From an uncultured Lentisphaerales bacterium (lineage in GTDB: Bacteria; Verrucomicrobiota; Lentisphaeria; JABSQK01; UBA12247), in NCBI GenBank assembly GCA_943788985.1, contig CALSSJ010000044.1:36660-100659 (forward strand): 64,000 nucleotides of DNA, given 5' to 3'. Shown here in pieces: positions 1 through 64,000 of this stretch (its first letter is position 1; each line of letters opens with the position of its first letter). Both the position numbers and the translations under genes were made by a program. The notes beneath the pieces are model-generated. The model was not told where the DNA came from and did no database searches. It saw nothing but the letters and a program-made list of their open reading frames with translations.

Positions 1-3000
1 ATGTAGTAGCGCTGCCCGGCCTGCAAGGTGACCGGCTCTGACTCCTGAGCGGCCGTGCGAATCTGCCGCACGCTGTTCCAATCATCCGTAAAGGCAACCA
101 CCGCAGTGTCAGCGGCAGAATCTGTGACGCTCAGTAACAGAGTCGCCTCACGATCGCCGGACACGTAAAAGGTGTACTCGCCGGTGGCCGGCGGATGCAG
201 GTAGCCTCGCACACGCGTGCCGTAGTGGTAGCCCCCAATGACTCGGCCCCTCAAAGGTACTGAGGTGGTCACTGAACGTTGGCGAATCAGGATAGCGCTC
301 GTCTTCTCTACCAAGTCCTCAACCGAGCCACCACGTACGTCCAGCCATACCTCGCGCAGAATGCCACCGACAGCCTGATTCAGCGGCTCAAGCACGGTCA
401 CCATGACCGTGTCACGGTGACTGGCAGCATCACAGGTCACTGTCAGCTCCAGTTCATAAACACCGGGCGCCTGCAAGGTCAACGTGGTCTCGGGATCGCT
501 TGCAGCCAGAAAACCGGCCCCCGCAGGGCCACTCAGCTGCCGCCACCGGACTGCTGGCTCTCCATCTTGGCCACGTCGAAACTGGATTCTGCCAGCCAGC
601 GCCAACTCACTACGTGGGAAATAGATCTCGCGATCTGGTCCGGCGTCTGCGAAGACCTTAATTGCCTCGTCGACAGGCGCGGCGTCCTCTCTACTCCACG
701 GAGAAAGCATACTACCGGGAACAATAGACAGTGCTGGCGACCATGGCGTGGACCAGGCAACGGCCACATGATCACCACCCCAGCCCTCTTTGTGCAGGAC
801 TTCGACATAATACCGCTCACCAGCCTCCAATTCCACCCAGATAGAAAGTTGCTCTTCGTACCGATCCCAATCTTCGGGAGACGTCGCCCCCGGGACCTGC
901 GCGATCAATGTTGCCGTCGCGGGATCGTCGCCAGCCCCCAGCAGCAGTTGACACTCGTCATCCCCCGAAATCGCAAACCTATACTGCCCGCTCACGGGGG
1001 CATGCAGATAGCCACGAATCCGCGTCCCGTAGCCGTCGCTCCAATGAACCGGCGTCGCCAAGCGTGGAAGCAGATCACGAAAATATGGATTGTCCGGGTA
1101 ATTCTCGTGATTCAGCAGTAGCTGTACCTCGTTGTACCAGACATCAGTCCACACCTCGCGTAGAATTGAACCGGTATTTGGTGCCAGTGCGCGGTGCAAA
1201 CGAACGATGACCTCATCGCTATGCACCACCGCACCTTCGATGCTGGCATCCAGGCGGATTACGTATTCGCCCTCAGCCGGGAGCGTCAGTGCGGTAGTCT
1301 CTCCTGTTTGATCGGCGATCGCTGCCTGAGTCGGCCCATCAATCTGCGTCCACCGAAAGGTCACCAGTTCTGGCTCCACGCTCATGGCGAAGACCTGCGC
1401 GGTGAGCGTCGTCTCCTGCTGCGGGCAGTACACCTCCTGATCATCACCGGCATATGCCACAGCGACCGGCAATGCCGTGGCGCGCGGCGCGTCCAAATAG
1501 GGCATCAAAAACACGGAATCAATCACCTGGCGTTCGATGTCCGGCCCTTGCCAGCCGACCGTCAGATAGTCGTGTCCACCGCCGTCCTTGTGAATTGCCC
1601 GAATTAGGTAACTCCGACCGGCCTCAAGCTCGATCTCGGCGGAAGCCTGCGAGTCCCGATAGTCCCAATTCCGGTAGCTGGTCCAGATATTCAGGTGGGC
1701 GATCTGCGTCAGACCAGCAGCGTCTTCGCTGTCGCTGAGAAACAGCGCACTATGGTCGTCGCTAGCGATGAAGAAGCGGTAGGTGCCAGTTGTTGGCGGC
1801 ACCAGCAGCGCAGTCAATTGCTGCCCGTAGTTATCGGCCCAAGGCTCTGGAGTCTCGAACGACTCAAGCGTGTCCACCACCATCGGCGCTTGGAGATACG
1901 CCTCGCTCGAAAGCAAGTTATCCACCCCGCCGCCGGAAACTCCCAGCCACACTTCACGAGTCACGCCCGTCACGCCCTCAATCAGACTCTGCCGGAGAGC
2001 AATTTCCACGTTGTCCACCGCCAGGTTGTAGCCGTCCACTGCCGTGACCTGAAATTCATACACTCCAGCGGCTGGCAAGGCCACCGTCGTCTCAAGCGCG
2101 CTAGGGTCTGCGATGTTCGCAACGCCCAGCCCCGACACTTGCCGCCACTCCACCTCGACTTCGGCATCCCAACGACGCTTAAAATAGTCTGCCTTCAGCC
2201 TGAATGTCTGCCGCGGCAGATAGCCGCTGCTATCCGGCCCGGCTCCAACCGCGAGTTCTACGCGGGGCAACAGCAGGGGCGCTGGCTGAACTGGTGACAA
2301 GTGTGTGCCCCCAATAGCCTGGCGTTCAAACACCCCTTCCAGTTCCCAGGCCACGGACAAACTGTCTCCGCCGCCAGCTTCCTTTTGCAGCCCTTCGATG
2401 TAGTACACTTGGCCAGCCTCCAGGTGGACTGCCACGGAGCGCTGTTCCTGAAATTTATCCCACTCCAGCGCCGCGGTCCAATCGCTCACAGTGGCGATTA
2501 GCACGGCTCCGCTAGGGTGCTCCGAATCAGAAAGATAAAGGGCACACTGGTCATCGCCAGAGACCCAGAACACGTAGTCGCCTGTGACCGGAGGATGAAG
2601 ATAGCCATGGACACGCGCTCCATAGCCCCAGCCCCAATTCACTGGGGTTGCGAAGCTGGTGAGCGCATCGCTAAAAGTCGGATTGTCCGGGTAGGTCGCG
2701 TGCTGCACCAGGTCAACAAGCCGCTTCCCCCAGATCCCTGTCCAGACTTCGCGGGTCACGGTTCCGCGCTCAAGCGCATTCGTGCCAGTTATGTGGGCTG
2801 CGTAGTCCGCAATGTTGGACATCCCGTCAAAATTCACGTCCCGCTCTCTGTCATGGGAGCCCGGATCGAGTCCCTTAGCCAGCTCGTAGGCGTCATGCAT
2901 GCCGTCACTGTCCGCGTCATCAAACATCGGATTTTTGCCCGTAACATACAACTCGTCGACACAAACCGGCCCGGCAAACGTCAGCTCACGAAGGCTCTGC

Positions 3001-3539
3001 GCGGCGCCGCTCAACGGCAGATCTGCGGCGAGCAGCCGTTTGTTGCCATACAAATCCCAGCGTTCCCGCAAAAAATCGATGCGGGCCGTAATCCGCAGCC
3101 AAATCTTCGAATGCCCGGCCGCGTCCACCGGAATCCGGCACTCCGTCAGCAGCCACGCGCTGTTCGCCCAAACCGCCACCACGCCAGCATCTGCACCGTC
3201 TGCCACGAAACCGATCGCCGCGGTGTCCGCAATCAAGAACGGCGTTTCCGCCACGCCGGGCCGGTAGTAGGCATCCACAAACACCGTCGCGGACTCATTC
3301 TCGCGAAAGGGAATTGTCGCCTCACCACTAGCCTCAACCACCAGGCTCTGACTGTGCTTCGCCTGATCGGCTGAGGTGATGGACACCCCACCCGCAACCG
3401 TCCAGCCTAGCTCCGTCAGGTCACTGTCGACCGCGTAGTTCTCCCACGTTTCGAACCGGACTCGCTCCGGTATCTTGTTCTGCGCCTCGGCATAGAAGGC
3501 GGCAAAAGTCATGGCCAGTAGTAATATCCTTGCTGTCAC
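1..3539 (-). CDS. Large secreted protein with >=4 tandem PA14 + PKD/Ig-like modules (3' end outside window)
   Basis: Manual translation from GTG 3539 gives a signal-peptide-like start (MTARILLLAMTFAAFYAEA), DxDxDG-like motifs (DADSDGMHD), then repeated 'REVW...YGxRxxGYLHPP.TG.Y.F.xSGDD...LEAG..YY...KE.GG' PA14 units about every 790-800 bp, separated by 'AGPD...W.Q.SG...G.YE..LTV' PKD-like units. The frame is open to the window edge, so it is absent from the ORF track. Confidence 0.85.
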   Translation of the reverse strand, partial: MTARILLLAMTFAAFYAEAQNKIPERVRFETWENYAVDSDLTELGWTVAGGVSITSADQAKHSQSLVVEASGEATIPFRENESATVFVDAYYRPGVAETPFLIADTAAIGFVADGADAGVVAVWANSAWLLTECRIPVDAAGHSKIWLRITARIDFLRERWDLYGNKRLLAADLPLSGAAQSLRELTFAGPVCVDELYVTGKNPMFDDADSDGMHDAYELAKGLDPGSHDRERDVNFDGMSNIADYAAHITGTNALERGTVTREVWTGIWGKRLVDLVQHATYPDNPTFSDALTSFATPVNWGWGYGARVHGYLHPPVTGDYVFWVSGDDQCALYLSDSEHPSGAVLIATVSDWTAALEWDKFQEQRSVAVHLEAGQVYYIEGLQKEAGGGDSLSVAWELEGVFERQAIGGTHLSPVQPAPLLLPRVELAVGAGPDSSGYLPRQTFRLKADYFKRRWDAEVEVEWRQVSGLGVANIADPSALETTVALPAAGVYEFQVTAVDGYNLAVDNVEIALRQSLIEGVTGVTREVWLGVSGGGVDNLLSSEAYLQAPMVVDTLESFETPEPWADNYGQQLTALLVPPTTGTYRFFIASDDHSALFLSDSEDAAGLTQIAHLNIWTSYRNWDYRDSQASAEIELEAGRSYLIRAIHKDGGGHDYLTVGWQGPDIERQVIDSVFLMPYLDAPRATALPVAVAYAGDDQEVYCPQQETTLTAQVFAMSVEPELVTFRWTQIDGPTQAAIADQTGETTALTLPAEGEYVIRLDASIEGAVVHSDEVIVRLHRALAPNTGSILREVWTDVWYNEVQLLLNHENYPDNPYFRDLLPRLATPVHWSDGYGTRIRGYLHAPVSGQYRFAISGDDECQLLLGAGDDPATATLIAQVPGATSPEDWDRYEEQLSIWVELEAGERYYVEVLHKEGWGGDHVAVAWSTPWSPALSIVPGSMLSPWSREDAAPVDEAIKVFADAGPDREIYFPRSELALAGRIQFRRGQDGEPAVRWRQLSGPAGAGFLAASDPETTLTLQAPGVYELELTVTCDAASHRDTVMVTVLEPLNQAVGGILREVWLDVRGGSVEDLVEKTSAILIRQRSVTTSVPLRGRVIGGYHYGTRVRGYLHPPATGEYTFYVSGDREATLLLSVTDSAADTAVVAFTDDWNSVRQIRTAAQESEPVTLQAGQRYY

Positions 3540-3744
3540 GTCTCATCGCTCTCTGGGTATAGCCTTCTCGGTAACAAAACGATCTTCGATTAACCTACCG
3601 TAGGTAGTTTGTGGCGTTAGGACAATCCCGATTTCCCATAATAACCCGGAAATATCTGCGATGGTTGCCACTTGCCTGTTGCAGGGTGGCTGCCTGAGGG
3701 TAGATTTCAATCTACTCGTTCCTGTCGAACCAGCCGTAGGGGCT

Positions 3745-4524
3745 ATGGAGCAGCTTTCCTTTGATGTTACGTTGTTTTCTGCTGACAGTGCGAATCTGTC
3801 CGCTCACTTGTCGCGAGGAAAGCTCCGACAAGGCGTACTTGCTTGGGTAGCAGCGCAAGGAGCCGACGCGATTGGCCTTGACGTTGTCACCAGAAACCAG
3901 CGGTTTCGTGCTCCCATCGGCGCGTTTTGGAGCAGCCCCGCTCAACTGGCGGCAAAGTCCATGCTTGTGGAAATCAAGACCTCGCGCGCAGCTTGCTGGC
4001 CGGACCATGTTCGTTCTGAGAACCTGCTCCCAGAGCTCCGGAGCCTCAAGCGAGACCGCCAGACTTTGCTGGCAGAGATTCGTGATGCCGAGCCACATCT
4101 CCGCTGTAGCCAGTCGCTCTTCGAAGAGTTTGCAGAGTGGAATTATGAGAAATCTGACAATCCCGCCTATCAGCAACTGAGCGAAGATATCCGGCGCGTA
4201 CAGACTGCCATCTATCGCGGAACCCGCTTCGAGCGGCTCGCTGCCGGGACGATGGCCCACAAACTCTACCTAGCCGTGCCTGAAGGCGCTGTACACCCGG
4301 ACGAGTTGGCCGACGGCTGGGGCCTACTTTGGGTACACGAAGATCAAAGCGTGACCTGCGTCGCTGATGCCACACACCACACCTGCCCCCAGGATGATGT
4401 AAACCGCTTCGCAGTTGCAATTGCGAAGTCCGCAAAAGCCTGCGTGCTGTTTGCCACTGGCATCGACGAGGCGCACGCATGCCGGATTGTGCAACCACCG
4501 CGCCGAAGACGAAAACCCCAATGA
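3745..4524 (+). CDS. Hypothetical protein, MmcB-like PD-(D/E)XK fold with large helical insertion
   Basis: Motifs 'MLVEIKTSRA' and 'HKLYLAVPEGAVHPDELADGWGLLWV'; ATG 3745 follows AGGGG; stop overlaps the next ATG. Confidence 0.55.
   Translation: MEQLSFDVTLFSADSANLSAHLSRGKLRQGVLAWVAAQGADAIGLDVVTRNQRFRAPIGAFWSSPAQLAAKSMLVEIKTSRAACWPDHVRSENLLPELRSLKRDRQTLLAEIRDAEPHLRCSQSLFEEFAEWNYEKSDNPAYQQLSEDIRRVQTAIYRGTRFERLAAGTMAHKLYLAVPEGAVHPDELADGWGLLWVHEDQSVTCVADATHHTCPQDDVNRFAVAIAKSAKACVLFATGIDEAHACRIVQPPRRRRKPQ
4421..4435. repeat. Dispersed palindrome TTGCGRASTYCGCAA, perfect copy
   Basis: TTGCGAAGTCCGCAA inside CDS (encodes IAKSAK). Confidence 0.9.
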
Positions 4525-6073: not shown

Positions 6074-6598
6074 TCACAGGCCCGCCACAGCCAGCGCCTG
6101 CCCCACCAGCTTGCTTGCTTGCTCTGCTGTAATCACCGCACCGTCGGCTAAATCACTGACCACCTTCAAGACAGACAGCGGCAGCTGACCACACGCAGCG
6201 GCAATCGCTCCGGTCTCCATCTCCACCAACGTCTCTACTCCCTCAGTTTGCGGAGTTCGCACCGTCGTCAACGGCCGTGCGGGCATTCCCGGCCACGGAC
6301 GCAGCGGGTACAGCTGTCCGTCCCACGCAACTGCCTCAGCCGTGAACACATCCCCGAACTGCACCTCTGGCGTCCCGCCGCAAATCCCGACGTTGCGAAG
6401 TTCGCAAATCTCGGAAAACTCGCGGAGCAAAGCACCTGTGGCCGCGCTCGCGCGCTCAGGCCCGACCCCCGTGATCGCCACGATGGCGTTATCCTTGCGA
6501 TAGATGCGAAAGCCCAGCGCACTTGGCACGCGCCGTGCCTGCAGCCGCGTCAATATCGGCTGCGCCTCACAGCGTAAGGCACACAACCAGGCAATCAC
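6074..6598 (-). CDS. Nucleoside phosphorylase / MTA-SAH nucleosidase-like protein
   Basis: 'ITGVGPERA', 'NVGICGG', 'VEMETGAI', 'LKVVSD'. Confidence 0.75.
   Translation of the reverse strand: MIAWLCALRCEAQPILTRLQARRVPSALGFRIYRKDNAIVAITGVGPERASAATGALLREFSEICELRNVGICGGTPEVQFGDVFTAEAVAWDGQLYPLRPWPGMPARPLTTVRTPQTEGVETLVEMETGAIAAACGQLPLSVLKVVSDLADGAVITAEQASKLVGQALAVAGL
6393..6407. repeat. Dispersed palindrome TTGCGRASTYCGCAA, perfect copy
   Basis: TTGCGAAGTTCGCAA inside CDS (ICELRN); a 14/15 copy lies at 6248-6262. Confidence 0.9.
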
Positions 6599-12051: not shown

Positions 12052-12789
12052 TCACGCACATGGGTCTCGTAAGATCCGTACGAGGAGACGCGCGAAAAGT
12101 TGCGGTTGTTCCAAGTGCACGTTATGTCCCGCCTGTCCTACTATCGCTGCCCGGACGCCCGCATGCGCCATCTCCAAGCTCTTTGCAATCTCTGCATACC
12201 GCGGATCCAGCGCGCCAGCAATCCACCACACCGGGCACCCTAAAAGCCCCAGATCCTGCTGCAAATCCCCCTGCCCGCCCAGACTGAATGCCCGTAGCGC
12301 GCGGGACAGTTCCTGCGCATTCCCCGTCGCCCTGCGCTGCACCAAGTCAGCTCGCTGCACCACCACGCTCGCAAACAAATCCTGACCGTACCATTTTTGC
12401 AAGAACACATGTAACCCAAATTCGACCAATTCATCTGCCAGTGTCCGATCCGCCGCCAAACGCTCGGCGCGAACTGCGGGGTCCGCAATTCCAGGATTTG
12501 CGGACTCCGCAATCAGGCAGCGAAGGCCCTGTCCATCGTGAACCGCCCAATCCAGCGCCAACCGACCGCCTAGCGAATAGCCCAGCACTGCGAATTCGGC
12601 GAGCCCCAGCGCCGCCACTGTCTCCGCGAACGCCGCGCGAAACCAGGAAATCGAAGCATCTGCGGGGCAACTTGTCTGGCCATGTCCTGGCACAGTCAGG
12701 CAATAGGCATTCAATTCCGGCAGATCCCTGAGCAGCCGATCCCACTCTCCAGCGTCCCCCAGAAAGCCATGAACCAACAGCACCGGCAA
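12052..12789 (-). CDS. menH: SHCHC synthase-like alpha/beta hydrolase
   Basis: 'VHGFLG', 'GYSLGGRLA', 'ESANPG', 'FLQKWY.Q.LF', 'AGHNVHLEQP'. Confidence 0.8.
   Translation of the reverse strand: MPVLLVHGFLGDAGEWDRLLRDLPELNAYCLTVPGHGQTSCPADASISWFRAAFAETVAALGLAEFAVLGYSLGGRLALDWAVHDGQGLRCLIAESANPGIADPAVRAERLAADRTLADELVEFGLHVFLQKWYGQDLFASVVVQRADLVQRRATGNAQELSRALRAFSLGGQGDLQQDLGLLGCPVWWIAGALDPRYAEIAKSLEMAHAGVRAAIVGQAGHNVHLEQPQLFARLLVRILRDPCA
12498..12512. repeat. Dispersed palindrome TTGCGRASTYCGCAA, perfect copy
   Basis: TTGCGGACTCCGCAA (IAESAN); a 13/15 copy lies 24 bp away at 12474-12488. Confidence 0.9.
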
Positions 12790-15201: not shown

Positions 15202-15633
15202 TCAGGCTAGGGACTCGCCCGTCAGCGTCACGACAATCCGACGGCCGCCACCGCGAATGCGATGTTCGCACAAGTAAATGCCTTGCCAGGTCCCCAGCTG
15301 AAGCTTGCCGTTCCGAATCGGGATCGTCACCGACGGCCCCAGCAGAGATGCCTTGATATGAGCCGGCATGTCATCCGGCCCCTCATACCTATGCACAAAA
15401 AACGGCGTATCATCCGCCACAGCATGCCTAAAATATCGCTCGAAATCAGCGCGCACCGTCGGATCTGCATTCTCATTCAACGTCAACGCAGCCGAAGTAT
15501 GCTGGATAAAGACATGCGCCAGCCCAATTGCGAACTCCGCAATCTCCGGCACTTGACAGATCAGCTCGTCCGTCACCAGGTGAAACCCGCGGTCGCGACT
15601 CCGCAGCACGATCTGCCGTTGTGCCCAGCCCAT
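15202..15633 (-). CDS. yjbQ: YjbQ / UPF0047 family protein
   Basis: 'HTSAALTLNENADP', 'H..EGPDDMPAHIK', 'LGTWQGIYLCEHR'; TGATG coupling with mraY. Confidence 0.92.
   Translation of the reverse strand: MGWAQRQIVLRSRDRGFHLVTDELICQVPEIAEFAIGLAHVFIQHTSAALTLNENADPTVRADFERYFRHAVADDTPFFVHRYEGPDDMPAHIKASLLGPSVTIPIRNGKLQLGTWQGIYLCEHRIRGGGRRIVVTLTGESLA
15528..15542. repeat. Dispersed palindrome TTGCGRASTYCGCAA, perfect copy
   Basis: TTGCGAACTCCGCAA inside yjbQ (IAEFAI). Confidence 0.9.
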
Positions 15634-16767: not shown

Positions 16768-16977
16768 GCGCCCCTCGCCTGTGGTGAACCGCGCACAACC
16801 GGCGCGCGTCGTAGTTTGCGAAGTTCGCGACCGAATGCAAAGCAAAACCGACAACCCCGACCGCGCGAGTGCAGTCTCCGCCGAACTGAACCGCAAACCC
16901 CCTCGCGGTCTTGCATTGACCACGAACAGGCCGTATTTGTAAAAGCTGTATAACTCCCTTTGAAAAGGATCCGGATT

Positions 16978-18108: not shown

Positions 18109-18786
18109 GTCTGCAGGCTCTCCAGGACCAAGTCGTTGCCTGCCGCAAATGCCCGCGGCTCATCGCCTGGTGCGAACATGTCGCTAGCCACAAGCGCGCT
18201 GCCTACCGCCGACGACGACTACTGGGGTGGCCCTGTCCCCGGCTTCGGCGATTTAGCAGCCCGCGTCCTCATCGTCGGCCTCGCCCCTGGTGCCCACGGC
18301 GCCAACCGCACCGGCCGCATGTTCACCGGAGACCGCTCCGGCGACTGGCTCTACCGCTCCCTTCACCGTGCTGAGTTCGCAAACCAGCCACACTCCATCG
18401 ATCGCAACGACGGACTCGTGCTCAGCGACGCCTTCATAACTGCTGGCGTGCGCTGCGCCCCGCCCGACAACAAGCCCACCACCGCGGAGCAAAACACCTG
18501 CCGCGCCTATCTGCAGCAAGAGCTCACCCTTATGCCCCAGCTTCGCGTCATCATCGCTCTTGGCGGGCTTGCCTGGAACAGCCTATTTCGAGCCCTTGCA
18601 GCCGTTGATCTTCACGACTCACCACGGCCCAAGTTTGGGCACGGTGCCGAAGTCAGCGTTGGCCCCTATCTGGTCATTGGCTGCTATCATCCCAGCCAGC
18701 AAAACACCTTTACCGGTCGGCTTACCGAGCCTATGCTAGACGCCGTTTTCCTTCGCGCCCGCGACATCATCCAGCCCCGCATTTGA
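18105..18786 (+). CDS. Uracil-DNA glycosylase family 5 (UdgB-like), one frameshift near 18208
   Basis: 'CRKCPRL' N-terminus from GTG 18105; 'GLAPGAHGANRTGRMFTGDRSG', 'RCAPPDNKP', 'YHPSQQNT'. Confidence 0.88.
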
Positions 18787-20497: not shown

Positions 20498-21250
20498 TCA
20501 AGTTCCGGGCAGCCAGCCGCGCCGGAGGGTCTCGTAGAGCAGAATGGTCGTAGCCTGGGCCACGTTTAGTGATTCCGCCTGCCCGGGCATCGGGATGGTC
20601 ACGCGGGCTCCGGGCAGGTCGCCCACGCCATGCGCCTCGCCGCCAATCACCAGCGCACCACCGCGTGGGTCAAACGCGGCATCCATGCACCGGGCACCTT
20701 CGTGAGGATCGGTCAGCCAAAGGCGCCCATCGGGAAACCGAGTCTGCCATTCCGCCACGGATTGCAGCTTAAATAGGGTTAGTGAGAACTGCGCGCCCAT
20801 TCCAGCGCGGATTGTCTTGGGCGAGTATGGATCGCAGGAGCCGTCAGTCACGCAGACACTGCGGAGTCCGCAAGCCCAGGCAGTGCGGAGGATAGTCCCC
20901 ATATTTCCTGGGTCGCCGACACCATCAAGAATAAGCGTGTAGGGCTCTGGCGAGGGCAGCTCGCTGGCATAGGCGTAGCGCATCACTGCCAGAATTCCCT
21001 GGGCGTTCTGCGTCGTGCTGACGGTTGCAAATTCCGCAACACTGCAGCGATGGATCCGCTCGGCGGAGATGCTGCGGGGGGCCTCAAAGCCCTCGGCCAA
21101 GACGACAAACTCAACCGCTTTGCCAGCGTGGATAAAGGCCTCTTCGCAGCAGCGTTGGCCTTCGACTAGGAACAGCCCTTCCTTGCGGCGGCTGCGGCGA
21201 TCATGGAGGCGCCGGATTAGGGATCCTTGGCGGCGAGTAAGCGCATTCAT
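20498..21250 (-). CDS. TrmH/SpoU-family RNA 2'-O-methyltransferase
   Basis: 'FLVEG', 'DPGNMGTILRTA', 'IGGEAHG', 'IPMPGQAESLNVA'. Confidence 0.92.
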   Translation of the reverse strand: MNALTRRQGSLIRRLHDRRSRRKEGLFLVEGQRCCEEAFIHAGKAVEFVVLAEGFEAPRSISAERIHRCSVAEFATVSTTQNAQGILAVMRYAYASELPSPEPYTLILDGVGDPGNMGTILRTAWACGLRSVCVTDGSCDPYSPKTIRAGMGAQFSLTLFKLQSVAEWQTRFPDGRLWLTDPHEGARCMDAAFDPRGGALVIGGEAHGVGDLPGARVTIPMPGQAESLNVAQATTILLYETLRRGWLPGT

Positions 21251-49191: not shown

Positions 49192-50870
49192 TCGCAAGCC
49201 TGATGATTCACAATCTGGCCCTCATCGAGGACCTAGAGCTCGAGTTTTCCCCGGGGCTGAACATCGTCACGGGTGAGACCGGTGCTGGCAAGTCCATCAT
49301 CCTTGGCGCCATTCAAATGCTCTTGGGCCAACGCGCGGACCGGACCCGGATCCGGCGGGACGCTACATCCTGCTCCGTGAGCGCTATCTATGAATTAGCT
49401 GGGCGCCCCGAGTTGATTGCAGAGCTGAACCAGTTGCTTGAGCCTAGCGGCTGCCCACCATGTGAGCAGGGGCAACTGCTGCTACGGCGTGTCATCACCG
49501 AGAAAACCAACCGAAACTACGTGAACGGCTGCCCCGTGAACCTCAGCACCTTGAGGGACTTGGGCAACCTCTTGGTGGACATGCACGGCCCCTACGATCA
49601 CCAGTCGCTATTTGACGTAAGACGCCAGCTCCAGGCGCTTGACACCTTTACCGGCGCACAGCTCGCCCGAGCGAGCTGTGCAACAGCCTACGCGGCCTGT
49701 CAGACCGCGCAGAGGGCGCTCGAACATTGGGAGCGTAACGCACCCAATCCCGCCCAACTGGAGAACATGCGCTATCAGCTGGACGAAATCGAAGCGGCAA
49801 ACCTCAACCCAGACGAAGTCGCCGAGCTGTCGCATACTCATTCCGTGGCCTCCAATGCCAGCCAGCTCGTCGGCATTCTCGATCGCTGTCGCACGGCCTT
49901 GGAGGAAGACGACGACGCGGTCCTACAGCAGTTCGGCAGCATGATGCGAGACCTCCAGGACGTCGCCGAGATTGATGATCAGCGCGGCCCCGTTCTGATT
50001 GAGTTGCTCGAGGCAGCAATCGCCCACACCCAGGCCTTTCAAGAAGAACTCACGGTTGTGGTCGGGCAACTCGAGCTGGACCCATTCGCCCTCCAAGCCA
50101 TCGAGGAGCGCCTCTCCGTTGTTCATGGCCTCCTCCGCAAGTACGGACCGACCGTGGAGCGCGTCCAGGAATTTGCCGCCAAGCTCCGCACCGATCTTGC
50201 CAGCTACGACGATGCGGAGCAGACGCGCCAGGAGTTGCAGCACGCAGTGACCGATGCGGAGTCCGCACATCTCCAAATCGCCAAGAAGCTGGGGAAAGCC
50301 CGTCGCAAAGCCGCTCCCGGCCTAGCCACGCAGATCACCGACAAGCTGAAAGTGCTGGGGTTCAAGGACTGCCAATTCGACCTTGCCTTTACCGACGCTC
50401 CTCCGGCTGCCACGGGGATCGACCGCGTGGAGTTTCGGTTTGCCCCGAACCCCGGCGAGGGTGCCCACAACCTGCGCGAGATCGCCAGTAGCGGAGAGAT
50501 CGCGCGCGTCATGCTCGCCCTCAAGACTGTTCTGGCTGCGGCCGACCGGATTCCGGTGCTGATCTTTGATGAGATCGATGCCAACATCGGCGGGACCACA
50601 GCAGCAGCAGTGGGCAGAGAAATGGCACGACTTGGCGGAGAACGCCAAATCCTCTGCATCACCCACACCCCGCAGGTAGCAGCGGGTGGGAGCCGGCATT
50701 TTCGTGTCCAAAAGCACGTCACCTCACAGCGTACCCACGCAGAAGTCTCAATCCTAAAGTCTACAGAAAAAATTGACGAAGTCGCCCGCATGTTGGGCAG
50801 TACCGACAACTCATGCGTGGTAAAAGATCACGCTCGCGAACTCATAAAAATAGCAAAGGCTGCATCATGA
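49188..50870 (+). CDS. recN: DNA repair protein RecN
   Basis: 'TGETGAGKS', 'HGPYDHQ', '[10 protein letters not shown]', 'IFDEID', 'CITH.PQVAA'. Confidence 0.96.
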
Positions 50871-52236: not shown

Positions 52237-52402
52237 AGTGTCCTGTCAGGTCTATTTTGGCGAGTAGATTATGGATGATTTCGGATGCTGAAGTGAGCTC
52301 GGATCGGCGACAGCGATCCTGTGGTATTGTTTAGGCGATACGGCTTGCTTCACCGCCGGAAAGGCCGCATCGCACCCGTTAAATTTGGTTTAACAGAACA
52401 CT
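52237..52402. mobile_element. Putative 166-bp MITE / IS-end remnant between convergent ugd and parA
   Basis: Imperfect terminal IR AGTGTCCTGTCA / (rc) AGTGTTCTGTTA (10/12); no ORF; right end coincides with the parA stop (CTAG). Confidence 0.4.
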
Positions 52403-53177: not shown

Positions 53178-53192
53178 TTGCGAAGTTCGCAA
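53178..53192. repeat. Dispersed palindrome TTGCGRASTYCGCAA, perfect intergenic copy
   Basis: TTGCGAAGTTCGCAA about 43 bp upstream of the parA start. Confidence 0.9.
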
Positions 53193-53334: not shown

Positions 53335-54276
53335 GTGAAAAAGCGGCCTCGTCTCTCCGTAAAAGAAGCCCTCGCTGACGAGACGCTTGCGAAAGCCGCA
53401 GCCGGTGACCTTGACGCCTGCGTCCACCTCGACGCCCTCGGCTTGCTCATCGGCCCCGACGAATCCGGCCCTGACTATGCCGAGCGACTGCGCAAGCTCC
53501 GCGGAAATATCGAAGAACTGCGGACCAAGCTCGAGGAAGGCCCGGTCGAGTTCTACGAGTTCAGCCTCACCCGCGCTGAGCGCATCCGCGAGAAAGCTTA
53601 CCAAGATGCGGTGTCCGCAACCTGGGGGCTTTATGACTTCGCCATCCACTGGGTCCCCGGATTCTACACCAATCAAGGAATGGGCCTTCTTTTTGCTGGC
53701 TGCGCCCTTTACTCCTACGAAGACTTCTTCGCCGTTTTTGTCATTCGAAAAGGCTTCCAGAAGAAAGATCGCTGGCTGATTTACAGCCGCAACGAACTCA
53801 TGGCCCACGAACTCTGCCACATCGCCCGGATTGGCTTTCACAGCCGTGCTTTCGAAGAAATGTTCGCCTATCGAACCGCCAGCTCCGGCTTTCGCAAGTT
53901 CATCGGTGGAATGCTCCGCAGCCCGTTGGACTCCTACCTCCTCGCTGGCGGCGCGCTCTCGCTCCTAGCCGTCCAGTACGCAAACATCTTCCTGCTCACC
54001 GAGCCCCTCCAATGGCTCTATGCCATCCCCGTCGGCCTGTTCGGCTACGTCCTGAGCCGCTTCGGCTGCGGCCAGACAGCCTTTCGCCTGGCCCGCCGCA
54101 ATCTTGCCAAAGTCTTCGACTCCGCAGATGCCCTGCCCGTCCTCTTTCGCTGTTCCGATCGCGACGTCTACGCCATCGCCGCCTGCCTCCGTCCGAGCGC
54201 CCTCCAGCAGTGGCTCCACAAGCGCGCCGCCGAATCGCTGCGCTGGAAGGTCACCCTCCGCCGCTACAACTGCTGA
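53335..54276 (+). CDS. Hypothetical membrane protein with HExxH zinc-metallopeptidase motif
   Basis: 'ELMAHELCHIAR...FEEMFAY'; two TM helices. Confidence 0.7.
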   Translation: MKKRPRLSVKEALADETLAKAAAGDLDACVHLDALGLLIGPDESGPDYAERLRKLRGNIEELRTKLEEGPVEFYEFSLTRAERIREKAYQDAVSATWGLYDFAIHWVPGFYTNQGMGLLFAGCALYSYEDFFAVFVIRKGFQKKDRWLIYSRNELMAHELCHIARIGFHSRAFEEMFAYRTASSGFRKFIGGMLRSPLDSYLLAGGALSLLAVQYANIFLLTEPLQWLYAIPVGLFGYVLSRFGCGQTAFRLARRNLAKVFDSADALPVLFRCSDRDVYAIAACLRPSALQQWLHKRAAESLRWKVTLRRYNC

Positions 54277-54298: not shown

Positions 54299-55177
54299 GT
54301 GAAACAACCCAACGTAGTGTTTCTTTTCGCTGACGAATGGCGCGCGTAGGCCACCGGCAACGTAGGCGATCCCAACTGCGAGAGCGCCGTGCTTGATGAG
54401 CTCACTCGGCACAGCCTCAATCTCACACATGCGGCGAGTGGCTGCTTCGTCTGCTGTCCCTTTCGCGGAAGCCTCATGTCCGGCCAGTATCCCCTCACCC
54501 ACGGCGTCTTCATCAACGACGTCGAGTTGTCCCTCGACTGCAACAGCATTGCCCGCGCCTTTAACGATGGCGAATACCACACCGCCTACATCGGCAAATG
54601 GCATCTATACGGCAGTCCTGACGGGCTCTGCGCGCGCCGATCCCTGCCTGCCCGTGGCCGGCTCGCACCAGCTCGGCTTTGATGATTGGAAAGGCGTCGA
54701 GTGCACGCGCGACTACCAGAACTCCGGCTACTATCACAACAAAGCCCACCCTCCATCCATGGGGCGACCACGACGCCTTTGGCCGAAGCCGCACCGCCGC
54801 CCAACACATCCGCGATCACGCCTTCGACATCATGCCCACGCTCCTCCGGCTCTGCGGTTTGCGAACTCCGCAAACCGTCGAAGGTAGAGACTGGTCTCCG
54901 GAGATACGTGGCGAGCAACTCGTAGCCGAAAACGACGCCGCCTTCCTCAACATGCCCGTGCCCCACACCGAGCTGCAATTCAACGACATACTCCCCTTAC
55001 CGCGGCGTGCGCACCATGCGCCACACCTACCTACCTGCCCAAGACGGGTCCTGGCTCCTTCGGGACGACAAGACCGATCCCTACCAAATGAGCAACCTCA
55101 TCAATGCACCCGAGCACGCTGAATTACAGGCCTACCTCGAAGCATTGCTCCAGCAAAAGCTAAGAATTCCACGATAG
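54299..55177 (+). pseudogene. Sulfatase pseudogene
   Basis: 'KQPNVVFLFADEWRA*', 'CCPFRGSLMSGQYP', 'TAYIGKWHL', 'DIMPTLL'; stop, frameshifts and internal deletion. Confidence 0.8.
54859..54873. repeat. Dispersed palindrome TTGCGRASTYCGCAA, perfect copy
   Basis: TTGCGAACTCCGCAA (LRTPQ) within the sulfatase pseudogene. Confidence 0.9.
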
Positions 55178-58183: not shown

Positions 58184-58956
58184 CCAAACGAATTGTCCCC
58201 TGCCTCGACGTCCACAACCGCGTCGTCACCAAAGGCGTAAAGTTTCAAAACAACGTCGAAATCGGCGACCCCATCGAGATGGCCGTGGCCTACAGCGATG
58301 GCGGCTGTGACGAATTGGTCTTCTACGACATCACTGCCTCCGCCGAGCGCCGCCCGATCGATATCGAAATGGTGCGCGACGTCGCTAAGGCCGTCCAGAT
58401 CCCGTTTGCCGTCGGCGGCGGGATCTCAGAGTTGGCCGACATGTACCGGGTTCTCGACGCTGGCGCGGAGAAAGTCTCGGTAAATTCCCTGGCGGTGCGG
58501 AGTCCGCAGATCATTGCCGATGGCGCCAAAGCCTTTGGCTCCCAGTGCATCGTGCTGGGTATGGATCCCGTAGCCCACAACGACCGCGAACGCTTTCCGA
58601 GCGGCTACGAGGTCACCACCCAAGGCTTTCGCACCCGCACCGGCATGGATGCGCTCGAGTGGGCCCGACGAGCCGAAGGGCTCGGCGTCGGCGAAATCGT
58701 CGTCAACTCAGTCGATGCAGACGGAACCCGCGACGGCTTCGAGCTCACGCTCACCGGCATGATCGCTCGCGAAGTCCGCATTCCGGTCGTCGCCAGCGGC
58801 GGCGCTGGCACCCCACAGCACCTCGCAGACGTCTTTCTTAAAGCCCGCGCTGACGCTGCGATCATCGCTAGCATGGTGCATACCGGCGACTACACGATCG
58901 CCGTCATCAAACAAGAACTAGACCAAGCTGGCGTGCCCATTCGCCGCCATTGGTAG
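58177..58956 (+). CDS. hisF: Imidazole glycerol phosphate synthase, cyclase subunit
   Basis: 'MLTKRIVPCLDV', 'DELVFYDITAS', 'VGGGI', 'DADGTRDGF', 'VASGGAG'. Confidence 0.97.
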   Translation: MLTKRIVPCLDVHNRVVTKGVKFQNNVEIGDPIEMAVAYSDGGCDELVFYDITASAERRPIDIEMVRDVAKAVQIPFAVGGGISELADMYRVLDAGAEKVSVNSLAVRSPQIIADGAKAFGSQCIVLGMDPVAHNDRERFPSGYEVTTQGFRTRTGMDALEWARRAEGLGVGEIVVNSVDADGTRDGFELTLTGMIAREVRIPVVASGGAGTPQHLADVFLKARADAAIIASMVHTGDYTIAVIKQELDQAGVPIRRHW

Positions 58957-58958
58957 TC

Positions 58959-61055
58959 ATGAAACTAGAAATCGGAACCCGTAGCAGCCAACTTGCCCTG
59001 ACCCAGGCGCAGGATGCACTCGAGCGCTTGATGGCCGAACTGCCACGCCTCGAGCTCTCGCTCCAGCCCATGTCCAGCCCCGGAGACCACGATCGCTCGA
59101 CCGACCTGCGGGTCAGCGATCCAGACTTCTTCACCCGCTTTCTCGACGAGGCCGTCCTCGCGGGCGAGGTCGACGCGGCTGTGCACAGCGCCAAAGACGT
59201 GCCCTACCCTGTCCGCGAAGGACTCGACTGGTTCTGGCTACCCTGGCACGAGGATCCGCGCGATGCCCTCGTACTGCGCGCCGGAGAATCCCGCGCAGAT
59301 CTGCCGGACGCACCAGTTTGCGGCGTTAGCAGCGACCGTCGTGACGAGTGGTGCAAAGCCCAATTTCCAACGGCGGTGCACCAGCCAATCCGCGGCAATA
59401 TCGAAGAGCGCATCGCCCAGCTGGATGCAGGCGACTACGACGCGGTGATCATCGCCGGAGCCGCCCTCAACCGGCTCGGCCTCCAGGATCGTATTAGCGA
59501 GTGGATTCCTTGCGCCGAGCTGCCACCGCCCGAAGCACAGGGCTGGCTCTGCCTGACCTTCCGCGAGGATGACGCCCGCTTTCGCACCATCCGTCAACGA
59601 TTCGTCTATGCCGTGACCCTGATCGGCGGCGGGCCAGGCGCAGACTACTGCACCCAGGCTGGTATCAAAGCGTTGCAGACCTGCGACGTCTGCCTGTACG
59701 ACGCCTTGGTCTCGAAGGACCTGCTGCGCCACATTCCTGCCGACGCCATCGCTATGGATGTCGGCAAGCGCGCCGGACGCTACCAAGTCGAGCGCGTCGA
59801 TGTCGACCGCATGATCAGCGACTACGCCCGCCAAGGCCGCCGCGTAGCGCGCTTAAAAGGCGGTGACCCCGGAATCTTCGGCCGCGCCGCACAGGAAATC
59901 GAATCGCTTCAGGAAATGTCCCTGCCCTGGCGCGTCATTGCGGGCGTCAGCAGCCTCCAGGCCGCGACCAACGAAACTGGCTGGTTTCTCACCCGCCGCG
60001 GCGTAAACACCGGCTTCACGCTGCTGACTTCGCGACTTGCGAACTCCGCAGTTGCCACGATTCAGGGCGAACATCGGCGAGATCTGCCGCTCGCATTCTT
60101 CATGCCGCTCAGAGTCCTAGACGCGTTGGTCAAAGCCCTGATCGATGAAGGGCGCAATCCCTACCAGCCCTCTGCCATGATTTTCGCCGCTGGTTCGCAC
60201 CAGCGCCAAGTGATCTCGGCACCGCTGTGCAAAATTTCTGAGGCCGTGGCCGAGAGCATGATCAACAAGCATCCTGCGCTGTTCATCGTCGGCGATACCA
60301 TGGCCCCCGAGTTTCTGCAGTTGCCGACTGGCCCGCTGCGCAATCGGCGCATCTTGTTGACCGGCAGTACCAACCTGATGCCCGCCCTCACCCAAGACGT
60401 GCTCTGGCGAGCTGGCGTTCCCCTGCCCTGCCCGCTGATCGAGCTGACCACGGAGCCTGCAGCCGGAGAGTTACTGCAGAACGTATCCGACTTTGACTGG
60501 ATTACGGTGACCAGCCCAGCCGCAGTACGCTGCCTGTTTGAGCTGCTGCGTGCCTTGGCGATCGACGTGCGCGAGCTACCCAAGATCATGGTCAGCGGCC
60601 CCGGCTGCGCCCAGGCACTCGCATCTTATTGCGTTTCGCCCGACCTCGGCCCTGAGACAGACTTTGGCGCGGCCGGCCTCGTGGCTGCTGCGGCCACAAC
60701 CGTGCAGCCTGGCGAACGCGTGCTGCGGCTCAAGTCCGACCGCGCGCCAGCGACGCTGAGTGACGGCCTGCGCGCCATCAAGGCAGAGGTGACCGAATGT
60801 GTGTTATACCGCAATCAGGCAGTGGAACAGCCGGAACTCCTCGAGTTCGACGCCGTGCTATTCCTGAGCAGCAGCGCTGTGGATGGCTTTGTCGACCGCT
60901 GGGGCACTGGCCCGCTGGCAGATACCGTGATCGTGGCCATTGGCCCACCGACGGCGGCGACCTGTGAGCACCACGGTCTCACGCCGTTGGTTGCGAACTC
61001 CGCAACCTCAGGCGGCTGCCTCGACACGCTCCAAAACCACTGGGCGTTCGACTAA
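58959..61055 (+). CDS. HemC (lacking domain 3) - uroporphyrinogen-III methyltransferase (CobA) - HemD triple fusion
   Basis: HemC 'IGTRSSQLAL.Q', 'VHSAKD', 'SSDRR', 'IRGNIEERI'; CobA 'GGGPG', 'YDALV', 'VGKRAG', 'RLKGGDPGIFGR'; HemD 'VTSPAAV', 'LY.N', 'FLSSSAV', 'IGPPTA'. Confidence 0.9.
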   Translation: MKLEIGTRSSQLALTQAQDALERLMAELPRLELSLQPMSSPGDHDRSTDLRVSDPDFFTRFLDEAVLAGEVDAAVHSAKDVPYPVREGLDWFWLPWHEDPRDALVLRAGESRADLPDAPVCGVSSDRRDEWCKAQFPTAVHQPIRGNIEERIAQLDAGDYDAVIIAGAALNRLGLQDRISEWIPCAELPPPEAQGWLCLTFREDDARFRTIRQRFVYAVTLIGGGPGADYCTQAGIKALQTCDVCLYDALVSKDLLRHIPADAIAMDVGKRAGRYQVERVDVDRMISDYARQGRRVARLKGGDPGIFGRAAQEIESLQEMSLPWRVIAGVSSLQAATNETGWFLTRRGVNTGFTLLTSRLANSAVATIQGEHRRDLPLAFFMPLRVLDALVKALIDEGRNPYQPSAMIFAAGSHQRQVISAPLCKISEAVAESMINKHPALFIVGDTMAPEFLQLPTGPLRNRRILLTGSTNLMPALTQDVLWRAGVPLPCPLIELTTEPAAGELLQNVSDFDWITVTSPAAVRCLFELLRALAIDVRELPKIMVSGPGCAQALASYCVSPDLGPETDFGAAGLVAAAATTVQPGERVLRLKSDRAPATLSDGLRAIKAEVTECVLYRNQAVEQPELLEFDAVLFLSSSAVDGFVDRWGTGPLADTVIVAIGPPTAATCEHHGLTPLVANSATSGGCLDTLQNHWAFD
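60991..61005. repeat. Dispersed palindrome TTGCGRASTYCGCAA, perfect copy
   Basis: TTGCGAACTCCGCAA (VANSAT); a 14/15 copy lies at 60037-60051. Confidence 0.9.
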
Positions 61056-62461: not shown

Positions 62462-63010
62462 ATGCATACGCGCACCTTTATCATCGCCTGCGTCTTGTTG
62501 GGCATTCTTGTGTTCCTGGCCCTTCAGAGACAGAGCCAACCCGTGGTCGCGCCGCAGGCGGCCGAGGAGAAGCCAGCTCCCAAGCCGGTGGCCGCCGAGC
62601 ATGTGGTCCGCCAGCCCACCAGTAAGGCCACAGATAGCCCCGGAGCCACTTTTCTGCTGGAAGGCTATGCGGACCCCAAACGCACGATCGTCGACGACCT
62701 CAAACTGGTCGACCACGTCTTCCGCGAGTATCAGGTCGCCTTCCGCGGGAATCCAGTCGGGACCAACGCAGAGATCATGGCCCGGTTTCAGGGACATAAT
62801 TCACGCAAGATCGTATACGTACCTGAGCAACACACCTACATTAATGCAGCGGGAGAACTGCTGGATCGCTGGAGCCGTCCGCTGTTCTTCCACCAACAAT
62901 CCTCGCACCTAATGGAGATCCGCTCCGCTGGACCGGATGGCAGCCATTGGACCGAGGATGACATCGTTTTCCCGCCCCCTGAGCCCGAGCCCCCTGAAAA
63001 AACGCCCTAA
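62462..63010 (+). CDS. Hypothetical membrane-anchored protein with GspG-like C-terminus
   Basis: N-terminal TM; '[11 protein letters not shown]...[15 protein letters not shown]'. Confidence 0.65.
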
Positions 63011-63014
63011 AATC

Positions 63015-64000
63015 ATGTCTGTACCTGCTCCCCTGAATCCCGGTCAACGCGTCCTGATGGGCCCTGGTCCCAGCGACGCCAATCCTCGTGTATTGAGGGC
63101 CATGGCCACGCCGCTCATTGGGCATTTGGACCCGGACTTCATTCAGATCATGGATGAGATCAAGGACATGCTGCGCACAGCGTTTCGGACCCAGAACGAG
63201 CTAACGATCCCGATCTCAGCGCCTGGCAGCGCTGGCATGGAGACTTGCCTGGTGAATCTGCTTGAGCCCGGCGATCGCGCGATCGTCTGCGTCAACGGCG
63301 TGTTTGGCGGACGCATGGCCGACATTGTCGAGCGCTGCGGCGCGACCGCAATCCGAGTCGAGGCCGAATGGGGCCAGCCGATCGCCCCCGAGAAAGTAGC
63401 AGACGCGCTGGCTGCAAACTCTGCAAAGCTCGTTTGCATCGTCCATGCCGAGACGTCGACCGGCGTGCTGCAACCACTGGAAGAGATTGCGAACCTCGCA
63501 CATGAGCACGAAGCGCTCATCGTGGTAGACACAGTCACATCCTTCTGCGGATCCGCGCTGGAAGTCGACGCCTGGGGCTTGGACGCCGTCTACACGGGGA
63601 CTCAAAAGTGCCTAAGCGCGCCTCCCGGAATCTCGCCGGTCACGTTCAGTGAGCGCGCGGTAGCGGTCATGGATGCGCGCAAAACGAAGGTCCAGAGCTG
63701 GTTTCTCGATCTGTCGATGGTGCGGAACTACTGGACAGGTGCCAAACGTGCCTACCACCACACCGCGCCGGTCAGCAGCATGTACGCCCTGCACGAGGCA
63801 CTGCGCATCGTCCTCGAAGAAGGACTCGAGCCGCGCTGGAAGCGCCATCAACAGAATCATGTCCTACTTCGCCATGGCTTGCAGGAACTTGGCTTCAAAT
63901 ACCTGGTCTCACCAGAGTATCGCTTGCCGATGCTGAACGCAGTGCATCTTCCTTCTGGTTGTGAGGATGCCGCCACTGCGCGGCGCACTGTTAGATCGTT
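63015..64000 (+). CDS. Alanine-glyoxylate / class V PLP aminotransferase (partial, runs off window)
   Basis: Manual translation from ATG 63015: 'LMGPGPSD', 'GHLDP', 'NGVFGGR', 'VHAETSTG', 'VDTVTS', '[11 protein letters not shown]', 'YHHT'. Confidence 0.92.

Follow-up and report, generated by a model that had tools for sequence, protein, structure and literature searches.

A hyper-iterated spaced dyad in the coding DNA of Lentisphaeria and its possible role as a self-DNA tag

Introduction

To our knowledge, the list of hyper-iterated DNA words is short (HIP1, DUS/USS and Chi), and the reason for the existence of HIP1 has been debated for three decades. Chi (RecBCD/AddAB) is short, asymmetric and polarised with respect to replication. 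For HIP1, GCGATCGC, the accessible parts of the sources propose roles in transformation and in chromosome structure (PMC5861425; PMC13756078; 10.1101/2024.09.10.611283). Uptake sequences are described as lying at poorly conserved residues, being absent in genes without homologues and showing a frame bias; USS and DUS are not palindromes, and coding DNA contains fewer of them than expected (PMC2817400). The matS, SBS and NBS sites number about 23-50 and are either restricted to ter or kept out of it (PMC3116907).

In this study we analysed a window of 64,000 nucleotides from an uncultured Lentisphaerales bacterium, together with its source genome and other genomes of the class. The original prediction concerned a repeated 15-bp palindrome in this window, TTGCG-RASTY-CGCAA, of which we found no published description in the literature. 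It represents an independent case of a hyper-iterated word with a different anatomy, that of an operator-type spaced dyad.

Results

The motif in the window

The copies previously listed by eye were recovered at the same positions (nine of nine perfect, seven of seven with one mismatch and 11 of 11 with two or three, that at 37551 having three), and the caution that the listing might be incomplete was justified by three further two-mismatch copies at 2798, 53606 and 58767. Perfect copies are expected 0.01 times (100 dinucleotide shuffles), and the 29 sites with at most two mismatches compare with an expectation of 0.66. Independent gene calling placed 25 of the 30 sites below (window coordinates, no strand assigned) inside called genes, in agreement with the claim that they are mostly intragenic and occur in all three phases.

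2108..2122, 2 mismatches, in CDS
2798..2812, 2 mismatches, in CDS, absent from the earlier listing
4421..4435, perfect, MmcB-like hypothetical gene (IAKSAK)
6248..6262, 1 mismatch, nucleosidase-like gene, phase 0
6393..6407, perfect, same nucleosidase-like gene, phase 2 (ICELRN)
12474..12488, 2 mismatches, menH-like gene, 24 bp to the 12498 site
12498..12512, perfect, menH-like gene (IAESAN)
15528..15542, perfect, yjbQ-like gene
16816..16830, 1 mismatch, outside called genes, assembly indel close by at 16740
18368..18382, 2 mismatches, uracil-DNA glycosylase family gene
20859..20873, 1 mismatch, RNA methyltransferase gene, phase 2
21025..21039, 2 mismatches, same RNA methyltransferase gene
27346..27360, 1 mismatch, outside called genes, assembly indel close by at 27481
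27836..27850, 2 mismatches, in CDS
31927..31941, 1 mismatch, in CDS, phase 0
32738..32752, perfect, in CDS (LAESAK)
33619..33633, perfect, panC, phase 2
35266..35280, 2 mismatches, in CDS
37551..37565, 3 mismatches, ketoacyl-synthase-like gene
37899..37913, 1 mismatch, same ketoacyl-synthase-like gene
41399..41413, 2 mismatches, outside gene calls, within LysM-domain ORF 40819-41517
50254..50268, 2 mismatches, recN, aligning colinearly at 68 homologous loci (identity of 0.26 vs 0.41)
53178..53192, perfect, between called parA-family gene and divergent hypothetical gene
53606..53620, 2 mismatches, in CDS, absent from the earlier listing
54859..54873, perfect, outside called genes
58495..58509, 2 mismatches, hisF, phase 0
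58767..58781, 2 mismatches, hisF, phase 2, absent from the earlier listing
60037..60051, 1 mismatch, hemC-cobA fusion gene
60991..61005, perfect, hemC-cobA fusion gene (VANSAT)
63487..63501, 2 mismatches, in CDS

Abundance and anatomy

The 4.58-Mb assembly of the source genome (G000, 83.6% complete) contains 380 perfect copies, 980 with up to one mismatch and 1610 with up to two, and the site total was put at 980-1,749. The top-ranking dyad in our test was TTGCG-N5-CGCAA, with an information content of about 20 bits. When spacers from N0 to N11 were scanned, N5 alone was enriched (594 against 4-14 for the 11 others), and after masking the half-sites showed no excess (0.91). The dyad is symmetric, has no strand polarity in G000 (384 vs 348) and in G028 occurs in both orientations either side of dnaA. 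The unit is a double-stranded dyad in which neither half can be missing and the spacer must be exactly five bases long. The arms of the predicted consensus, (T)TGCG-N5-CGCA(A), are conserved, but RASTY proved to be only a lineage-local spacer preference. Several sites are spanned by contigs from other marine metagenomes, which differ at 0-3 positions in each piece of 1-4 kb, and the motif is therefore not an assembly artefact.

How sites are written into genes

The expected enrichment over codon-preserving shuffles was borne out, with 801 sites observed against 22-31 after synonymous shuffling and 0-2 after shuffling of codon order, which indicates that the peptides are biased too. In G000 the exact 15-mer occupies 292 of 400 peptide-compatible positions (1.3 expected), realisation being 71-79% in each frame and the N4 and N6 controls at chance. 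In 2.4 Mb of a second genome (G032) the core is realised at 42 of 44 and 56 of 61 positions in two frames and at 64 of 266 in the third, about two being expected. Realisation in all three frames upholds the view that the constraint is on DNA and not on peptide. Aligned with their homologues, sites prove to be colinear substitutions, and the residues concerned are poorly conserved (identity 0.30 vs 0.47, n=50, p 6e-6). The alignments have no gaps at most sites, with a mean gap fraction of 0.05 and 2 of 50 consisting largely of gaps. Sites arise by point substitution wherever the protein tolerates it, even where amino acids are changed. They also turn over between lineages: 170 sites in G000 and 45 in G032 have only two positions in common (448 orthologue pairs).

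It is scarcely credible that the motif was left behind by a mobile 15-bp insertion made in frame, or by a REP-like hairpin. The length is a multiple of three and relatives contain some tandem pairs that are exactly duplicated, but conservation extends no further than one base per side, neither arms nor flanks covary, alignments are mostly gap-free and the spacer varies freely, so that this origin is largely refuted. A MITE, already doubted in the original prediction, and a REP were rejected, as flanks are unrelated, the position is not extragenic and hairpin covariation is absent.

Distribution along the chromosome

The share of sites in CDS (86%) is the same as the coding fraction and promoters show no excess. 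Non-coding DNA is not enriched in G000 (16.8 against 23.0 per 100 kb), the figures for G032 (8.1 non-coding vs 6.5) were counted as not enriched, and convergent intergenic gaps are not richer in sites. Density climbs with GC3 from 11.5 to 34 per 100 kb and drops from 39 to 8 with ribosomal-like codon use, realisation being only 43% in the most ribosomal-like quintile. The motif is scarce in islands and highly expressed genes, no copies were found in either of the two rRNA regions, and deserts reach 87 kb. Counts per 20 kb have a variance of 10.5 around a mean of 4.2, so that spacing is over-dispersed, and close pairs occur at 2-5 times the Poisson rate. No periodicity was detected on contigs >140 kb (p 0.1, with low power in a fragmented assembly), nor was helical phasing between sites. 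Tandems at 16 bp number 10 in G000 against 1.0, and this pitch was not replicated elsewhere (4 of 75 among pairs listed in 25 genomes; 1 of 11 in five f9 genomes). Core density is narrow, at 177-382 per Mb across six genomes.

The suggestion of a macrodomain or nucleoid-occlusion site of the matS, NBS or SBS kind did not hold, since sites are 20-70 times too numerous and, in G028, uniform around dnaA. In this near-complete relative, 54 sites are evenly placed from dnaA (10/14/9/13/8 per fifth, p 0.93-0.97), the origin being taken from dnaA and circularity and length being assumed; for 23 sites in G025, distance from dnaA gave p 0.08-0.11. Sites occur on both large replicons.

The main rival explanation, although rather unlikely, is that a sequence-specific nucleoid protein coats and bridges the whole chromosome for compaction or segregation, a large population keeping many weakly selected sites and promoters and highly transcribed genes being avoided because bound protein would be a roadblock. 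The lack of a non-coding excess, the low realisation in ribosomal-like genes, the narrow density band, the clustered pairs, the tandems of G000 and the operator-like geometry all favour this, whereas over-dispersed spacing with no detected periodicity or phasing, the unreplicated 16-bp pitch and the lack of an ori/ter pattern oppose it. None of 60 genomes of the class yielded ScpA, against 9 of 14 controls; ParB_N was found in 12 of 46 and not in G000, G017, G025, G028, G032 or G034. These absences also favour a nucleoid protein, yet motif-free genomes likewise lack ScpA and manage without the motif. A chromosome-structure role has been proposed for HIP1 too, in the accessible text of PMC5861425.

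Search for a reader and related machinery

The predicted dimeric, sequence-specific reader is likely, but the co-distributed DNA-binding protein expected with it was sought and not found. TTGCG-N5-CGCAA also flanks cI/cro-like XRE genes in unrelated prophages, where 3-6 copies with AT-rich spacers lie in the intergenic DNA around a single repressor gene. To judge from their position these dyads are probably operators, and their place beside cI/cro genes makes it plausible that a helix-turn-helix dimer could read the motif. No repressor resembling prophage cI/Cro was found in G000, in which two XRE genes exceed the cut-off and neither is phage-repressor-like; this absence, and the genome-wide, intragenic occurrence of the motif, led us to reject a prophage cI/Cro operator.

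It is very improbable that the motif is the operator of a global transcription regulator, whether a domesticated phage repressor, Lrp, LysR or LexA. Prophage immunity regions carry the same dyad, and its 5-5-5 geometry is like that of the Ss-LrpB box (PMC1802622, in the text available). Opposed to this are the location in CDS without promoter excess, the unconserved positions and the lack of sites upstream of recA in five genomes and of lexA in G000. Lrp is present in 60 of 60 genomes, without a group-specific helix or an intact upstream site, and a motif scan of G000 found no LysR.

It is unlikely that the motif is a classical uptake sequence, which a pilin or a receptor of the ComEA type would recognise at the cell surface or in the periplasm as the cell undergoes natural transformation. 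The proteome signature resembles that of USS/DUS, dialects exist between lineages, and G000 carries DprA-, PilB/PilT- and ComF-like genes (motif scan, reading by eye). However, neither type of comEC turned up in the assembly of G000, which is 83.6% complete, while ComEC occurs in 57 of 60 genomes, motif-free ones included. A second, longer ComEC-like gene was seen in 7 of 30 genomes with the motif and in 0 of 30 without it, although it is missing in most positives and four of the seven carriers are kin. The palindromic motif, not enriched outside genes, also differs from USS/DUS as described in the accessible part of PMC2817400.

A HIP1-type word made by an orphan methyltransferase with methyl-directed repair or recombination is distinctly improbable. 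The motif is palindromic, genome-wide and intragenic like HIP1, and it contains GC-N7-GC and, in some variants, GANTC, which are enzyme targets. Yet its ~20 bits far exceed a methyltransferase site, spacer dialects abolish GANTC, and the only C5 methyltransferase found in G000 by motif scan lies in a lower-GC stretch and has a match of just 28% in the 70% of G032 that was covered. HIP1 itself acts methylation-dependently, according to the accessible text of 10.1101/2024.09.10.611283.

Spread across the class

The motif occurs in about a quarter of sampled Lentisphaeria and is confined to the class, with a near all-or-none split between sister genera. Motif figures for sister lineages are 131 in G159 against 7 and 1 in G123 and G151, and 216-712 in g18/g15 against 3-6 in g21. 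The spacer differs freely among genomes, forming lineage dialects. A Mu-like phage is motif-rich, carrying 11 cores within 20 kb and 7 within 11 kb; among about 160 viral records with flanks, only 1-2 are motif-rich. A relative at intermediate distance was sought and none was found, and the sampled population is near-clonal, for which reasons drive and weak selection are not separable here.

Discussion

It is tentatively suggested, at close to even confidence, that the motif is a position-independent tag of self or resident double-stranded DNA that biases inheritance. A homodimer, probably of helix-turn-helix type, would read both arms one helical turn apart and sense the spacer indirectly, which could give rise to lineage dialects. 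Site-rich DNA that comes into a cell or passes from one cell to another may survive or recombine more often, either because it is shielded from degradation or because recombination machinery is loaded onto it, and the resulting bias could push sites up genome-wide without gene-specific function. Gain or loss of a single reader locus might produce the near all-or-none distribution, and temperate phages could acquire sites as residents or mimics. The high realisation of compatible positions, the excess over both kinds of shuffle, the frame bias, the poorly conserved residues, the few shared positions, the trends with GC3 and codon use, the lack of a half-site excess, the contrast between sister lineages, the phage copies and the prophage dyads count for this self-tag reading, and the earlier idea of HIP1- or DUS-like self-DNA recognition fits, the proteome imprint matching that of uptake sequences. 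Against it count the failure to find a reader, the failure to find comEC in the G000 assembly and its presence in motif-free genomes alike, the rarity of motif-rich viral records, and the lack of enrichment in non-coding DNA, as under pure drive unconstrained DNA should fill first.

It is possible, although doubtful, that these features together constitute a new genome-wide identity system, in which one gainable and losable repressor-like dimer reads an unmodified operator-type dyad written about 1,500 times in coding DNA, its coat licensing DNA as self (by protection or recombination, and with mimicry by temperate phage) and perhaps organising the chromosome where the class has no SMC-ScpAB and, for the most part, no ParB. 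Since sister genera differ in the motif and spacers form dialects, the reader should be findable by profiling and drive against selection testable. A self-tag should govern gene flow and genetic tractability in an abundant marine PVC group; an architectural role would show how chromosomes are organised in a class that does without ScpA and in which most members lack ParB.

Comparison with known systems

Chi has a similar density, a core-genome bias and the character of a self-mark acting on recombination, but unlike Chi and KOPS the present motif is symmetric and unpolarised. Lambdoid-type prophage operators (cI/Cro XRE) have identical arms and spacer length; they differ in being few, intergenic and AT-spaced at one repressor gene, with a similar repressor not found in G000. 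Sites of matS-MatP, SBS-SlmA and NBS-Noc are likewise palindromic, 12-15 bp and intragenic, with no regulatory role in the accessible text of PMC3116907, whereas the present sites are 20-70 times more numerous, on both replicons, neither confined to nor excluded from ter, and the ParB family was not found in G000.

USS of Pasteurellaceae and DUS of Neisseriaceae share the copy number of about 1,000-2,000, the dialects, the scarcity in genes without homologues and the full proteome imprint of frame bias, peptide enrichment and poorly conserved residues. Membership was rejected, as the motif is palindromic and spaced and neither non-coding DNA nor terminators hold an excess of it; the assembly yielded no comEC. 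HIP1 of cyanobacteria (GCGATCGC) is similarly palindromic, hyper-abundant, genome-wide, mostly intragenic and limited to one lineage with exceptions. HIP1 is a contiguous octamer, however, and the present motif a spaced dyad of 13-15 bp and about 20 bits, with no cognate methyltransferase found by motif scan, no periodicity detected and positions not conserved across orders; identity with HIP1 or another contiguous 6-8 bp palindrome was rejected, the top dyad being spaced and half-sites not enriched. On the best reading, the motif works like DUS/USS or HIP1 but is a member of neither.

Abundance of the motif

All nine perfect, seven one-mismatch and eleven two- or three-mismatch copies of the 15-bp dyad TTGCG-RASTY-CGCAA that the original prediction placed in the window are present at the positions it gave, and its list fell short by three further two-mismatch copies. 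Chance would supply 0.01 perfect copies in the window, and 0.66 with up to two mismatches. The source genome (4.58 Mb in 48 contigs, 58% GC, 83.6% complete) holds 380 perfect copies, 980 with at most one mismatch and 1610 with at most two. TTGCG-N5-CGCAA occurs 594 times in it as against 4-14 times for each of 11 other spacer lengths tested, and the 13-bp core TGCG-N5-CGCA 1,749 times as against 142-205 with other spacer lengths. When all 5-mer palindromes with spacers of 0-20 are ranked in this genome, the motif dyad comes first. Dyads of the form CCCCC-N4/5/6-GGGGG are likewise enriched genome-wide (35-67 against 2.5 expected) and are possibly terminator hairpins.

Contigs of other marine metagenomes agree with the source genome apart from few differences, and among the variants listed in the polymorphism comparison they describe a near-clonal population. 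RecN matches were either 100% or at most 45% identical, with no relative at intermediate distance. The same contigs reveal single-base indel errors in the assembly, and therefore some of the sites scored as intergenic may be coding. The genes priA and recA are seemingly split (window 12835-15025, 16740, 17610-18023 and 27481; recA on contig C23), and at several of these window positions single extra bases are missing from the other metagenome contigs, so that many of the breaks are assembly indels.

Sites within genes

Using our own gene calls (3,587 genes), 847 of the 980 sites lie within coding sequence, which matches the coding fraction of the genome. Their codon phases (555/127/119) extend genome-wide the earlier observation that copies sit inside genes in all three phases. 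The control by codon shuffling bore out the enrichment: synonymous shuffles yield 22-31 sites and codon-order shuffles leave 0-2, against 801 observed. At positions where the peptide is compatible and the choice is synonymous, the exact 15-mer is realised in 292 of 400 cases with 1.3 expected, at 71-79% per frame, and N4 and N6 spacer controls are at chance level. In the class relative G032, of which about 70% of the genome was covered, the core is realised at 42/44, 56/61 and 64/266 positions. The motif is a DNA-level dyad of exact spacing which comes near to saturating permissive positions.

Comparison with homologues indicates that sites are produced by point substitution, with 50 sites in 39 proteins appearing as colinear substitutions, two of them largely gapped; that the motif is a mobile relic is scarcely credible. 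Site residues are less conserved than their surroundings (0.30 against 0.47, p 6e-6, n=50 sites). Among 448 orthologue pairs between the source genome and G032, carrying 170 and 45 sites respectively, only two sites coincide, and therefore density is maintained while positions turn over. Sites are depleted in islands and in highly expressed genes. Density climbs with GC3 and drops toward ribosomal-like codon use, starting at 39 per 100 kb and ending at 8, and both rRNA regions have zero sites. A cas operon (C46:30788-38002), which by eye looks like type I-C, carries three sites.

It might be proposed that a surface uptake receptor reads the motif, which we regard as improbable. Non-coding DNA is not enriched (16.8 against 23.0 per 100 kb in the source genome, 8.1 against 6.5 in G032), which speaks against a classical uptake drive and counts for an intracellular binder.

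Anatomy of the dyad

Conservation ends one base beyond the 15-mer, in keeping with the claim that flanking homology is absent. Information content is about 20 bits, from a matrix of consensus-selected sites that makes the value partly circular. A hairpin or single-stranded DNA model was rejected on finding no covariation between arms or flanks, and half-sites are not in excess after full sites are masked (observed/expected 0.91). The unit is therefore a dyad of double-stranded DNA whose half-sites are offset by ten bases, and it may be read by a dimer contacting two successive major grooves. The orientation of asymmetric spacers is unrelated to local GC skew (384 against 348), and an Rfam search gave no match. 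In G009 (loci L147-L149), a genome from the source genome's order that lacks the motif, AACGC-N5-GCGTT occurs 94 times, in most cases with a single fixed spacer, and we take it to resemble a REP-type repeat.

Position along the chromosome

Site counts in 20-kb bins are over-dispersed, follow GC (rho 0.57) and correlate weakly between neighbours (0.2), with site-free deserts of up to 87 kb and neither significant periodicity nor helical phasing. The class relative G028, assembled in three contigs, has 95 RASTY-core sites (a complete list) spread evenly over both large replicons. On its dnaA replicon, assuming circularity and replicon length, there are 10/14/9/13/8 sites per fifth of the distance from dnaA; the corresponding counts in G025, another class relative, are 4/3/10/6, not significant. 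Known sites of the matS and SBS types number 23 and 50 and are ter-confined and ter-excluded, respectively (PMC3116907, in the part available), and the macrodomain analogy drawn in the original prediction therefore fails. Binding by a protein of whole-chromosome architecture is unlikely, if the most serious of the alternatives; as an essential structural lattice it has the clumped spacing and large deserts against it.

Close pairs (15-24 bp) are in excess, with 27 against 6.7 in the source genome and 36 against 12.5 in five other genomes, an excess comparable to gene-scale clustering. Head-to-tail pairs at 16 bp are ten-fold enriched in the source genome (10 against 1.0; for example C10:142618, C15:102315 and C36:31104), the two sites of each pair being out of frame with each other. 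A cooperative 16-bp pitch as a general rule was rejected, as it is strong in the source genome but relatives show no enrichment (4 of the 75 pairs listed, of 93, and 1/11 in another set).

Distribution in Lentisphaeria and in phages

The class label Lentisphaeria was taken in part from an Atlas cluster. Of 201 class genomes, 29 carry the RASTY form in at least 7 copies; of 144, 35 carry the free-spacer form in at least 43 copies, 70 of the 144 having been hand-picked and being enriched for positives. In other classes of the phylum none of 147 genomes exceeds 25 free-spacer copies, and a paired-site scan of GTDB genomes gave no further genome-wide case among at least 120 loci listed. Within the class to which the motif is restricted, copy number is largely bimodal, with few intermediates (24-45 copies), and gains and losses are abrupt: in the order of the source genome the motif is present in families f1 and f3 and absent from f2, f4 and f5, in family f9 genera g18 and g15 have 216-712 copies against 3-6 in g21, and in family f24 131 copies in G159 stand against 1-7 in G123 and G151. 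G111 and G079 against G095 and G149, and G089 against G055, give further tight contrasts of positives with negatives. Core density is 177-382 per Mb across six genomes. Spacers form dialects by lineage, RASTY in the source genome, AT-only in G124 and GC-rich in G018.

Some 160 viral loci with flanks included only two motif-rich contigs, possibly of one phage. One comes from a temperate phage of Mu-like type (portal, MuA/MuB-like, Gam) and has 11 cores in 20 kb. Some of these form in-frame doublets, 18 bp apart, that lie in low-complexity linkers of one gene (L111:10001-10033 and about 10295-10327); two further sites lie within gam. The other is a tail region with 7 cores in 11 kb. In many proteobacterial prophages, two clusters of TTGCG-N5-CGCAA, amounting to 3-6 copies and having AT-rich spacers, surround cI/cro-like XRE genes (examples are the viral loci L354-L429, and L245, L278, L283, L287 and L292). 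Judged by their position, these dyads probably act as operators for a type of immunity that is widespread, and therefore it is plausible that an HTH dimer reads exactly TTGCG-N5-CGCAA. That the motif is itself the operator of a regulon is very improbable, and a LexA box was dismissed, no site being found upstream of recA or lexA in the source genome.

Search for the reader

Most candidates were rejected on their distribution. HU and Lrp/AsnC are universal (60/60 class genomes each), and the Lrp/AsnC helix is not group-specific in 13 aligned full-length orthologues from 30 loci. AP2 occurs in 1/60, the source genome alone. ParB_N is found in 12/46 class genomes, none being the source genome, and ScpA in 0/60; motif-free genomes lack both as well. 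Motif scans of the source genome saw no SMC/MukB-like ATPase and no LysR. A prophage-repressor profile placed two of its XRE genes above cut-off, the best (E 0.005) being HipB-like, and XRE repressors were set aside. The hypothetical protein at window 3661-4524 has no Pfam match and is single copy in 43/60 class genomes; its closest named Atlas cluster is MmcB-like (score 0.81), which is a lead only, and as a reader it was rejected, occurring in most negatives and in 0/8 of family f9.

The window contains a ParA-family gene (52401-53135) and no parB. The divergent neighbouring gene (53335-54276) encodes a hypothetical protein that Atlas places near unnamed clusters most frequent in Chlamydiota; it does not adjoin parA in G032. 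Comparing the genes of the source genome with the roughly 70% of G032 covered yielded 715 reciprocal matches, and neither inspection by eye of those listed nor Pfam on 30 picks turned up a convincing reader.

ComEC was also rejected, being present in 57/60 class genomes yet not found in the source assembly at 83.6% completeness. A longer ComEC-like paralogue (open frame of 940-1270 aa), absent from the source genome, occurs in 7/30 positives and 0/30 negatives, and in two genomes it follows a gene of about 670 aa without assigned identity.

Longer ComEC-like gene, by locus
L112:3886-7050, longer ComEC-like gene
L114:5821-8967, longer ComEC-like gene
L115:3910-6744, longer ComEC-like gene
L117:93-2906, longer ComEC-like gene

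Comparison with known systems

Our tentative preference is for a self-DNA tag, in which the motif would be read by a dimeric protein and DNA carrying sites might gain an advantage in inheritance. Searches of the literature outside subscription journals and supplements yielded no description of the motif; the only match to its exact strings is an R.MwoI engineering paper. The available part of the main text of PMC5217627 has neither TTGCG nor Lentisphaer, and its supplements could list the motif. This analysis contributes a replicated realisation test, an ori/ter test, positional turnover, spacer dialects, a connection with the operators of prophages and a set of candidate readers that were excluded.

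The proteome imprint of the motif resembles that of USS/DUS (PMC2817400, in part), and its symmetry and spread are similar to those of HIP1 (PMC5861425; PMC13756078; 10.1101/2024.09.10.611283; each in part), although the motif fails some defining tests of each, and a HIP1-type methylation route is highly improbable. It likewise fails defining tests of matS/SBS/NBS, Chi and REP. The motif is real, undescribed as far as searched, and belongs with the hyper-iterated DNA words.
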